Below are positions 10,711 to 13,904 of a stretch of 28,096 bases of DNA, piece by piece. The translations under genes and the position numbers were made by a program. Under the pieces are notes generated by a model. It was not told the DNA's origin. It saw only the letters and a program-made list of their open reading frames with translations, and did no database searches. Source of the stretch: Nitrososphaerales archaeon (lineage in GTDB: Archaea; Thermoproteota; Nitrososphaeria; Nitrososphaerales; UBA213); assembly GCA_036443875.1 (NCBI GenBank), contig JAZFZF010000231.1, positions 1 through 28,096 on the forward strand. The letters run 5' to 3'. Positions within the stretch are counted from its first letter, which is position 1. Each line of letters begins with the position of its first letter.

Positions 10711-10764
10711 ACAATTGATGAATTGACAGGTACGTTTAAGCGTAGTGTTAATACAAGGAACGAT
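10711..10764. promoter_or_regulatory. Compact bidirectional promoter (yjbQ / NUDIX)
   Basis: 54-nt gap with a central TTTAAG/CTTAAA (10735-40), about 25-30 nt from both ATGs. Confidence 0.4.
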
Positions 10765-11274
10765 ATGACCGAAAGCAAGCGCGTATTCGATGGAAGGATA
10801 ATCAGTGTTAGAGTTGATAGAGTACAGATCAATGGAAGGGAAACTATACGGGAAGTTGTTGAACACGGTGGTTCTGCTGCTACACTTCCCTTAATTGGCG
10901 ATACGATAATAATGGAAAAGCAGTACCGATATGCTATTGGAAAAGAACTGTATGAAATTCCTGCTGGGACAATCGAGAAGGGAGAAAGCCCTGAAAAGTG
11001 TGCTACAAGAGAGCTTGTTGAAGAAACTGGTTTCAAAGCTGGAAGACTTGAACCACTTGGGCAATGCTATATGACTCCTGGCTACTCTACTGAAATGATG
11101 TACTTCTTTGTTGCCACTGATCTGAAAGAAGCGAAGAGCCAAGAGATGGATGCAGATGAGCAACTTACTACTGTGAAAATAAGTATTGATGATGCTGTAA
11201 GGATGATATCAAATGGTGAAATTCAGGACGCGAAGACCGTTTACGCAATATTGACTTACAGGTCGAAACGTTAA
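10765..11274 (+). CDS. NUDIX hydrolase, ADP-ribose pyrophosphatase (NudF)-like
   Basis: Nudix box GTIEKGESPEKCATRELVEETGF, plus REVVEH, QYRY and IQDAKT. Likely start is 10765. Confidence 0.92.
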   Translation: MTESKRVFDGRIISVRVDRVQINGRETIREVVEHGGSAATLPLIGDTIIMEKQYRYAIGKELYEIPAGTIEKGESPEKCATRELVEETGFKAGRLEPLGQCYMTPGYSTEMMYFFVATDLKEAKSQEMDADEQLTTVKISIDDAVRMISNGEIQDAKTVYAILTYRSKR

Positions 11275-11300
11275 ATTTGACGCTTATGGAAAATATTGTG

Positions 11301-11377
11301 TTTGATGAGACTAACCTGCACTGATCCTAAGGACACCCGGATATGAAGAGATGCATCTCGACTGACGTCTCATCAAA
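11301..11377 (+). ncRNA. Box C/D guide sRNA candidate
   Basis: C box TTGATGA (11302-08), 12-nt guide, D' CTGA (11321-24), C' ATGAAGA (11343-49), 12-nt guide, D CTGA (11362-65). Upstream CGAAACG-TTAAAT (11264-76) is BRE/TATA-like. Confidence 0.8.
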
Positions 11378-11420
11378 TTTTCTTCCCAAATATTTATTAT
11401 ACATTGAATAGGAAAGCTAC

Positions 11421-13904
11421 TTGATGTATGTTCAAACTAAGAAGTTCGAACTCCCCGGAAGTAAACCAAATTACATTCCAGCCAAACAGTTCACAATCAA
11501 GCATATGAAACTTGAACTGAAGCCAGATTTCGATGAAAAGAGCATCATCTGTAGGCAGACGCTTACAATAAGTGCAGTTCAAGACGGTTTTGATCATGTA
11601 ATACTTGATGCGGCCGAGTTGAACATCAGATCTGTACGTACCAATGAACAGTCCTTACAGTTCAAAACCTTTGATGACAAACTAAGAATAGATTTTCCCA
11701 CTCCTGCCGGTGAAGATGAAACTATTATAATTTCAATTGATTATGATGCCAAACCGAGGCAGGGGTTTTATTTCGTAAAGCCAGATCAGAATTATCCTGA
11801 CAAGCAGGTTCAGGCATGGACTCAAGGTGAAGCCACACAGTCAAGGTATTGGTTTCCATGCTTCGATCATCCAGACATGAAATTCACGAGCGAAATGATT
11901 GTTGAAGTTCCAAATGATTTTGTTGTTATATCGAATGGAAAGTTGGTTGACGTAACCAAAATGGAGCTGACAAGGTATTACTGGATAGAGGAGCACCCAC
12001 ATCCTGCATATCTAACATCAGTAGTTATTGGAAAGTATGAAGAGATAAAAGAGAATTATAATGGTATAGATCTATTATATTACGTACCAGAAGAAAAAGT
12101 CGATAAGGCACCACTTGTGTTCTCCAACACAATAAGCATGATAAAGTTCTTCGAGGAGTATACGGGAGTAAAGTATCCTTACGATAAGTATGCACAGGCT
12201 ATAGTTGATGATTTCATTTACGGAGGAATGGAGAATATTAGCGCAACAACTTTGACGATGGATACATTGCATGACAAAAAGGCACACTTAGATTTCACCA
12301 GCGACCACTTGGTCTCGCATGAACTTGTACATCAGTGGTTTGGAGATTTAGTAACTTGCAGGGACTGGCAGCATATATGGCTCAATGAGTCATTCGCAAC
12401 TTACTTCGAGGCATGTTCATGGCTACATAGCAAGGGTCAGGATGAATTTAATTATTATATAATGCAGTTAGCTGAAGAATATTTTGAAGAAGCTTCGAAA
12501 CGGTACAAGAGACCAATAGTCACCAATGTATACAAACACCCTGACGATCTTTTTGATCGACACACATACGAAAAAGGCGCATGCACATTACACATGCTAA
12601 GAAATCTTGTGGGTGACCGCATCTTTAGGAAGACTATCAAATTATACGTTGAGAGGTTCAGTAACAAGAATGCTGAAACAGATGACTTTCGGAAATGTAT
12701 CGAAGAGGTATCTGGTTTAAGTTTACAACAATTTTTCGAGCAGTATATCTTCAAGCCAGGACACCTAGAATTGAAGGTCGACTTTGCGTTCGAACATTCC
12801 TCCAGAATAGGAACCATAAAACTTGCACAAATGCAGAACACAGACGATGGAACTCCCATCTATACATTCCCTCTGGATATTCATGTTACAACTGCAGAGG
12901 GCAAGAAGCAATTCAAGTTCACCATTGATTCTAAAGAACCGGTCTTTCACATTCCTCTAGATTCAGAGCCCATATGGTTTAGCATAGATCCAGAAAACAA
13001 ATTGCTGAAGAGAATGGAAGTAAAGGCATCGAAGCAGATGCTCATTGAACAGTTGAATAACGGAAACACGGTAGAAAGAATTTACGCCGCAAAGGCATTA
13101 TCGAATTTCAGCTCTGATGATGTTATAGGAGCATTGAAAGAAACCATGCTTACCGATTCTTTCTGGGGTGTGTCTGTACAATGTGCCAAAACGCTCTCAG
13201 ATATCAAGACCGAGGCTGCTTACAACTCGTTAGTTGATGCTCTTGACATAAAAAGCCCCAAGGCAAGACGAGCCGTCGTTAAAGCAATAGGAGAGTTCAA
13301 GAAGCAAGAGAGCGTCTCTTTACTGCGACCTCTACTTGAGAATGACGAAAGTTATTTCGTCCAAGCAGAATGTGCTACATCCATGGGAAAATCAACTTCG
13401 AAGGAAGCCTTTGCTACTCTATTGAAAGCATTACGAATAAGATCGTTTAATGAAGTGATAGCATGCGGTGCGCTTAAGGGCTTTGGCGAATTGAAGGATG
13501 ATATTGCATCACATGTACTGATTGAACATTCGAAGCTTGGAAAACATCATAGAATAAGGGAGGCGGCTACACTTGCGCTTGGAAAGTTTGCCAAGGACAA
13601 TGACAAAGTTATTGATCACTTGAAGCAGTTACTGAAAGATTCATGGTTTAGGGTGAGAATCAACGCGATAAAGGCATTTGTTGAGGTACAGGATTACAAA
13701 GATATCGCCAATATAGAGTGGGTTGCCAAGAACGATATTGATCCCAGAGTGCAAAGAATTGCAGAAGAAAGCGTATTGGCTCTAAGAGAATCAATGCAAA
13801 CTCCGGAGCAAATTACGCAGATGAGAGAAGAATTTGATAAATTAAAGTCACAGAATTTGGAGCTGGTACAGAGATTGGACAAAGTGGAAAGAGAACTTGC
13901 ATAG
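11421..13904 (+). CDS. M1 family aminopeptidase (PepN-like) with C-terminal HEAT repeats and coiled coil
   Basis: GGMEN, HELVHQW-x-WLNESFA zinc motif, YEKG and repeated HEAT-like helices. Confidence 0.93.
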   Translation: MMYVQTKKFELPGSKPNYIPAKQFTIKHMKLELKPDFDEKSIICRQTLTISAVQDGFDHVILDAAELNIRSVRTNEQSLQFKTFDDKLRIDFPTPAGEDETIIISIDYDAKPRQGFYFVKPDQNYPDKQVQAWTQGEATQSRYWFPCFDHPDMKFTSEMIVEVPNDFVVISNGKLVDVTKMELTRYYWIEEHPHPAYLTSVVIGKYEEIKENYNGIDLLYYVPEEKVDKAPLVFSNTISMIKFFEEYTGVKYPYDKYAQAIVDDFIYGGMENISATTLTMDTLHDKKAHLDFTSDHLVSHELVHQWFGDLVTCRDWQHIWLNESFATYFEACSWLHSKGQDEFNYYIMQLAEEYFEEASKRYKRPIVTNVYKHPDDLFDRHTYEKGACTLHMLRNLVGDRIFRKTIKLYVERFSNKNAETDDFRKCIEEVSGLSLQQFFEQYIFKPGHLELKVDFAFEHSSRIGTIKLAQMQNTDDGTPIYTFPLDIHVTTAEGKKQFKFTIDSKEPVFHIPLDSEPIWFSIDPENKLLKRMEVKASKQMLIEQLNNGNTVERIYAAKALSNFSSDDVIGALKETMLTDSFWGVSVQCAKTLSDIKTEAAYNSLVDALDIKSPKARRAVVKAIGEFKKQESVSLLRPLLENDESYFVQAECATSMGKSTSKEAFATLLKALRIRSFNEVIACGALKGFGELKDDIASHVLIEHSKLGKHHRIREAATLALGKFAKDNDKVIDHLKQLLKDSWFRVRINAIKAFVEVQDYKDIANIEWVAKNDIDPRVQRIAEESVLALRESMQTPEQITQMREEFDKLKSQNLELVQRLDKVERELA

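Follow-up and report, generated by a model that had tools for sequence, protein, structure and literature searches.

In the intergenic DNA that separates a NUDIX gene (10723-11274) from an M1 aminopeptidase gene (starting near 11421), a Nitrososphaerales archaeon encodes a box C/D guide RNA in a structural form new to this class, with a tail complementary to its own box C. By the window we mean the whole stretch of 28,096 nucleotides that was analysed, to which all positions refer. The RNA is almost certainly a genuine archaeal box C/D sRNA, with 16S rRNA as the predicted target of its methylation guides; its identification as a box C/D sRNA, first made in a sequence-only reading of this DNA, is borne out by the boxes and their spacing, a covarying internal stem, guides that match 16S rRNA and the presence of genes for fibrillarin, Nop5 and L7Ae. 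The pairing of the tail is very probably under selection. As the best explanation we put forward, tentatively, an independently transcribed dual-guide sRNA that extends from 11300 to about 11381 and whose panhandle is a precursor or storage state. Its anatomy, conservation, restriction to one lineage and predicted energetics are results of the analysis; where the transcript begins and ends, in which order the steps occur and that the closed form is inactive are inferred.

Anatomy and predicted transcription unit of the sRNA

On the forward strand, box C (TGATGA, 11303-11308) is followed by a 12-nt spacer, box D' (CTGA), a 19-nt linker, box C' (TGAAGA), another 12-nt spacer and box D (CTGA), with a single linker nucleotide (11366) between box D and the tail (Table 1). 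The base that precedes box C (UGAUGA in the RNA) is a U, not the purine expected from RUGAUGA. The arms at 11301-11311 (TTTGATGAGAC) and 11367-11377 (GTCTCATCAAA) are 100% complementary over the 55 nt that separate them, and the minimum-free-energy fold adds a wobble pair, G11300:U11378, as the twelfth pair of the panhandle; the z-score of the fold is -1.66. The sequence-only reading had described a C/D'/C'/D layout with two 12-nt guides, a tail that is the exact reverse complement of 11301-11311 and a 5' arm that covers box C and the first three guide nucleotides, all of which were confirmed by the sequence read and a repeat finder, with the arm now extending over 11300-11311. Flanking stem I, outside boxes C and D, is missing: only G11300 and C11366 could pair there, and this pair is not conserved. 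Such a lack does not exclude membership of the C/D class, because many natural archaeal sRNAs have two or fewer flanking pairs (PMC9014305).

No Rfam family matched at its gathering score, the best being sR42 with 15.5 bits against a cut-off of 38, and weak generic C/D matches appeared at relaxed thresholds; a tRNA scan of the window returned none. An sRNA on the antisense strand was rejected, since a box C-like word occurs there without a CTGA at the right spacing, and an alternative K-turn with the panhandle as its stem I was ruled out by inspection, given that the 5' strand has CC where GA is needed after the 3-nt bulge. Separately, positions 11348-11359, at the end of box C' and in the D guide, form a perfect 12-nt palindrome (GAGATGCATCTC), extended to 14 nt in Nitrosocaldus-like orthologues, which could fold as a small hairpin inside the guide or join two sRNA molecules and is partly explained by the TGCA core of the 16S target.

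Table 1. Coordinates of the sRNA gene and its elements within the window
Feature	Position	Strand	Observation or basis
BRE/TATA promoter of the sRNA gene, AAACGTTAAATTT	11266..11278	+	87-89% pairwise identity, 10 orthologues
Predicted transcription start, G after T	11300	+	22 nt after the TATA octamer; from archaeal TATA-to-start spacing
5' arm of panhandle	11300..11311	+	includes box C (11303-11308) plus nucleotides 1-3 of the D' guide
D' guide, 12 nt	11309..11320	+	majority form elsewhere complements 16S GCAGGTCAGT
Box D' (CTGA)	11321..11324	+	sequence read, alignment
Internal stem-loop closing the C'/D' motif	11325..11341	+	11325-11328 pair with 11338-11341
Box C' (TGAAGA)	11344..11349	+	sequence read, alignment
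D guide, 12 nt	11350..11361	+	pairs with 16S GAGGTGCAT
Box D (CTGA)	11362..11365	+	invariant in all 10 orthologues
3' tail, anti-box-C arm of panhandle	11367..11378	+	core TCTCATCA (11368-11375); perfect complement
T-rich run TTTTCTTC, likely archaeal oligo-T terminator	11378..11387	+	T-run after the tail in every orthologue; putative function

Judged by its sequence, the sRNA gene is a small transcription unit of its own, with predicted ends. The upstream AAAGGTTAAATTT element is 87-89% identical among the ten orthologues, as opposed to 44% for the 22-23-nt leader that follows it, and the BRE/TATA element accompanies the sRNA even beside other flanking genes. The stop codon of the NUDIX gene, TAA at 11272-11274, sits inside the TATA box, so that the end of this gene and the sRNA promoter overlap. 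The predicted start, G11300, is also the first paired nucleotide of the panhandle, and the same TATA-to-start spacing places the start of the aminopeptidase mRNA at its own ATG and that of a second sRNA of the family at the first G of its terminal stem. At the other end, the T-run follows the tail directly in one sub-clade and 5-6 nt later in the other. Promoter spacing and T-run together thus predict that the primary transcript begins with one arm and ends with the other, forming a panhandle. The stem does not fit the compact, G+C-rich hairpin with an immediate U-run that marks an intrinsic terminator, being A/U-rich, enclosing 55 nt and having an adjoining U-run in one sub-clade only. The aminopeptidase has a promoter of its own, TTTATTAT (window 11393-11426), which is kept in most but not all family orthologues and lies 23-24 nt before the ATG at 11424, implying a leaderless mRNA.

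The sequencing runs that match the window are marine or sediment DNA metagenomes, and the search of sequencing runs returned no RNA runs carrying the locus. DNA contigs from four sediment runs gave fragments only, without informative variants at the locus.

Conservation of the tail, relatives and predicted rRNA targets

Orthologues occur in seven of the eight other genomes of the window's family, with weaker matches in two other families, and our alignment (A1) comprises ten family-type sequences, eight from genomes and two from metagenome contigs. Among these ten, 90.7% of the cells of the closing stem pair, compared with 25-45% in controls whose partners were slid by 1-3 columns, and identity is 78-81% in the tail, 44% in the leader and 16% at linker nucleotide 11366. 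The anti-box-C pairing spans nine genera in which the adjacent non-coding DNA is saturated with change, and in two genomes (G003 and G005) the tail is retained with the sRNA although the downstream promoter differs. The sequence-only reading had named a lack of complementarity in orthologues as one possible refutation, and its proposal survives this comparison, as nine of the ten family orthologues keep the pairing.

The covariation check that the same reading had suggested showed partial covariation. The two outermost pairs change on both sides (GU, GC or AU for one, UA in three sequences against AU in four for the other), but the eight pairs of the core are unchanged on either strand in nine of the ten sequences. 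Since only two pairs and essentially two sub-clades are involved, independent covariation events are few. The invariance of the core, in turn, suggests that box C is constrained by its use in a K-turn and that the tail tracks box C, which is itself kept in nine of the ten orthologues (box D in all). Within the internal D'/C' stem, 95% of the cells pair and two of the four pairs change on both sides within the family; the forms recorded are TCCT/AGGA, CCCC/GGGG and, in other lineages, TCCC/GGGA and TCGC/GCGA.

One genome departs from this pattern. In G004 (L008, G004:C2), box C reads TTAATT and the D' guide has diverged, with C', the D guide and box D intact; two of the eight nucleotides of the tail core have changed as well, the predicted pairing collapses, and a search for a second copy of the sRNA in this genome found none. 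That the sole orthologue without box C is also altered in the tail core supports a coupled decay of the two elements.

Beyond the family, a pattern search built on C', the D guide and box D matched at least 120 metagenome contigs and 63 species genomes, yielding 139 distinct sequences from Bathyarchaeia/Bathyarchaeota, Nitrososphaeria, Nitrosocaldus and Nitrosomirales, where loci identical to the family orthologues are labelled Nitrososphaerales archaeon or Candidatus Nitrosomirales archaeon. In 49 distinct Bathyarchaeia-type sequences, a GCGG/CCGC stem directly flanks the boxes; a soil sub-clade has external stems of 8-13 bp, placed 5 nt before C and 3 nt after D, with compensatory variants; and Nitrosocaldus-like versions show no consistent closing stem. 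The general expectation of the sequence-only reading, that terminal stems normally flank the boxes, thus holds for this RNA in other lineages, and among the lineages compared a stem that covers box C is found only in the window's family, a group of ammonia-oxidiser-like archaea. As a catalogue, these loci (L039-L221) describe an sRNA with both guides that is common to Bathyarchaeia and Nitrososphaeria and absent from Rfam. A few further matches lie in bins labelled as bacterial (Acidimicrobiaceae, Methylomirabilota, Acidiferrales and Acidoferrum) and are probably mis-binned archaeal contigs.

Strict and relaxed C/D scans of the genome returned this RNA and one canonical sRNA, with no other anti-box-C tail among them. 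The canonical one (G000 contig C101, about 1318-1376; L264/L265) has its own conserved promoter, occurs in all nine family genomes and, unlike the RNA with the anti-box-C tail, has a flanking terminal stem with an invariant GGGG/CCCC (GGGG/CCGC-type). An anti-box-C pattern scan of 61 genomes found this family only, besides matches that do not look like C/D RNAs and lie mostly, it appears, in coding sequence, and within the family the strict dual-guide pattern retrieved no RNA other than this one.

To find targets, we used the 16S and 23S rRNAs of family members and of a Nitrosocaldus-like genome, because the window's own assembly contains no assembled rRNA. The majority form of the D' guide, found in other lineages, complements 16S GCAGGTCAGT perfectly over 10 bp, and the family form pairs with the 16S of family members through 6+3 pairs around one A.C mismatch; by our estimate, a 10-mer match has a chance of roughly 0.01 in about 4.5 kb of rRNA. 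The D guide makes nine contiguous pairs with 16S GAGGTGCAT, eight of them Watson-Crick and one G.U, and a T-to-C change in another family turns these into nine Watson-Crick pairs. The guides of the window's family fit 16S slightly worse than those of other lineages, which counts against the best explanation. By the fifth-nucleotide rule, the targets would be G1135 for the D' guide and G978 for the D guide (G001 16S numbering), two sites of the 3' major domain with some 157 nt between them, which, going by E. coli landmarks, may lie near the two strands of helix 34. We predict on these matches that the RNA directs, or chaperones, 2'-O-methylation at both sites. The genome also encodes the protein partners, with the genes for Nop5 and fibrillarin on contig C60 and that for L7Ae on C84. 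In the window's own genome, the only perfect 10-mer complements of the guides are the gene itself and one site on contig C179, and no 8-mer of the tail's complement occurs in the 16S or 23S of relatives, where it was sought as an additional rRNA-antisense element. Separately, the 23S match in the family genome G001 (L037, G001:C15:15113-18876) measures 3764 nt as opposed to 2961-3056 nt in two other family genomes, a difference that points to an inserted segment of about 700 nt, perhaps an rRNA intron.

Two predicted exclusive structures and competing explanations

We modelled the full transcript as 11300-11381 and the trimmed form as ending one nucleotide after box D (D+1). Forcing boxes C and D to be single-stranded costs 10.2-12.4 kcal/mol (37-10 °C) in the full transcript and 3.2-3.5 kcal/mol after trimming to D+1. 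In the full-length models, box C is 97-100% paired in nine of the ten orthologues, a value that drops to 33-58% on trimming. The tail core (11368-11375) also complements the C' region (11344-11351) at seven of eight positions, and if box C is kept open in the model, the tail is predicted to pair with C'. For the two mutually exclusive structures, exclusivity is thus computed, selection for the helix is read from pairing and identity, and selection for the K-turn is deduced from the invariant boxes.

In the model that we favour, the transcript would start only 3 nt before box C, too close for a terminal stem to flank the boxes. Its final 11-12 nt, just ahead of the oligo-T terminator, would pair with the first 11-12 nt, closing a panhandle in which box C is buried, and the RNA would therefore have two mutually exclusive states, panhandle and K-turn. 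The panhandle would replace the missing flanking stem by holding the ends together and protecting them, and may also aid termination. It could be opened either by L7Ae, if the protein binds boxes C and D before the tail has emerged from the polymerase, or by removal of the tail through 3' trimming, after which the active sRNP would form. Two exclusive states are favoured because the boxes are more invariant than a helix alone requires and the tail stays complementary to them; against the precursor reading, a 3' end within a 12-bp duplex is a poor substrate for trimming. A regulated lock is on this basis plausible but unproven. In its more specific form, the anti-box-C element would gate the RNA: the K-turn could form, and L7Ae bind the terminal C/D motif, only briefly during transcription or once the tail is gone, and assembly would be checked, or tuned to the availability of L7Ae, by the RNA itself; this we regard as possible but doubtful.

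Several other explanations account for part of the data. The window has two perfect inverted repeats that reach 11 bp or more and enclose no more than 80 nt; simulations with a first-order Markov model of the window lead one to expect 0.66, and the genome as a whole gives 0.73 per 28 kb, so that an 11-bp repeat is not by itself beyond chance. It could be fortuitous, or act at the level of DNA, for instance as a protein-binding site or as the terminal inverted repeats of a small mobile element, with no role in the RNA. What raises it above chance is that it is conserved and partly covarying in orthologues and that its arms coincide with the predicted transcript ends, and the specific pairing register, the nine genera with saturated neighbouring non-coding DNA, the persistence of the tail with the sRNA where the downstream gene changes and the single copy per genome make this explanation highly improbable. 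A miniature mobile element with terminal inverted repeats is not supported, one copy being found per genome where multiple dispersed copies would be expected. A stem that serves 3'-end formation or stability only, as a terminator-like hairpin and exonuclease block that insulates the aminopeptidase promoter about 15 nt downstream without gating the RNP, is a rather unlikely reading. The close next promoter, the abutment of the 3' arm on the T-run in one sub-clade and the recurrence of long closing stems of this sRNA in other lineages agree with it. However, established work holds oligo-T alone to be sufficient for archaeal termination, the T-run lies 5-6 nt past the stem in the other sub-clade, and the tail is kept in G003 and G005 despite their different downstream promoter; moreover, whatever its purpose, the stem still occludes box C, and the conflict with the K-turn remains.

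The stem could also juxtapose the ends for circularisation, giving a mature circle with C/D as a K-loop-like motif. Archaeal C/D sRNAs are often circular, and an ATP-dependent ligase needs the terminal stem to act on them (PMC9014305, PMC7994747); yet circular sRNAs have been reported almost only in thermophiles (PMC7994747) and the organism here is from marine sediment, a Pab1020-family RNA ligase was not found in nine family genomes, five of them at least 90% complete, and RtcB, which is present, needs endonuclease-made ends for which no bulge-helix-bulge motif is visible. As circularisation would in addition leave the tail in place, we give it very little credence, and the circular route to activation that the sequence-only reading had offered is weakened by this negative search for the ligase. 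Finally, the panhandle may be the working form of the RNA, with a plain 11-12 bp stem replacing the terminal C/D K-turn, L7Ae bound only at the internal, stem-closed C'/D' K-turn and the single-stranded box D beside the stem acting as a Nop5 contact, which would make it a natural counterpart of the engineered guide BMG1. For a Sulfolobus RNP in vitro, both guides are active when the terminal C/D motif is removed but the stem is kept, and 3'-overhang nucleotides beside the stem touch Nop5 (PMC9670817); the lack of any flanking stem I in the family RNA and the proper covarying stem of its C'/D' motif fit such an arrangement. As plain-stem engineered guides work with archaeal Nop5-fibrillarin in vitro, the closed form need not be inactive (PMC9670817), and of the earlier claim that the untrimmed RNA folds into an OFF state, the occlusion of box C stands in the models and the inactivity of the RNA is called into question. 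We nevertheless consider the working-form explanation unlikely: a need for the helix only predicts compensatory drift, but the eight core pairs do not vary and box C is kept perfectly on the 5' strand, the tail also covers three nucleotides of the D' guide, and the gap from the D guide to the stem is 5 nt (CTGAC) compared with 3 nt in the engineered guides, a difference that would displace the methylation ruler.

Known systems and significance

C/D guide RNAs are usually viewed as passive scaffolds, whose terminal stem aids K-turn formation, and we know of no description, for archaeal or eukaryotic C/D RNAs, of maturation gated by an anti-box-C element. The RNA resembles archaeal box C/D sRNAs of the L7Ae-Nop5-fibrillarin system in its C, D', C', D order, its two 12-nt spacers, the accompanying core protein genes and the predicted pairing of its guides with rRNA, with the target at the fifth nucleotide from D or D', but differs in having no box-flanking stem and in using box C as a strand of its sole terminal helix. 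Terminal stems are considered important for L7Ae binding (PMC7994747). The versions of the same sRNA in Bathyarchaeia, the soil clade and Nitrosocaldus-like genomes are orthologous in guides, boxes and internal stem, but carry flanking stems or none, never one that covers box C. Eukaryotic snoRNA precursors have long external or terminal stems that draw C and D together and may reach past the mature termini (PMC4150776); those stems flank and stabilise the K-turn, whereas the one described here competes with it. The engineered C/D-free guides BMG1 to BMG3 likewise join a plain terminal stem to an internal C'/D' motif and leave two guides single-stranded (PMC9670817). They are, however, artificial and lack boxes C and D, both of which are retained and invariant here, and the spacing from stem to guide differs. 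A further likeness is with sR8 of M. jannaschii, for which Gagnon et al. (cited in PMC3001065) reportedly described, in 2006, a temperature-facilitated remodelling during sRNP assembly, the structure of the sRNA being rearranged before the full RNP assembles; to our knowledge, no dedicated conserved anti-box element was described in that case.

Both guides are intact across Bathyarchaeia and Nitrososphaeria, which is unusually deep for an archaeal C/D sRNA, considering that the targets of such RNAs are reported to be poorly conserved (PMC7994747), and this depth predicts two conserved Gm sites in 16S rRNA. Within that range, one lineage of nine genera keeps a terminal helix that competes with the K-turn, and its relatives use the usual closing arrangements for this RNA. 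Should the panhandle prove to gate the binding of L7Ae, it would offer a simple case from nature in which an RNA itself controls how its RNP assembles; should the panhandle prove active, it would stand as the first equivalent in nature of the engineered C/D-free guides.
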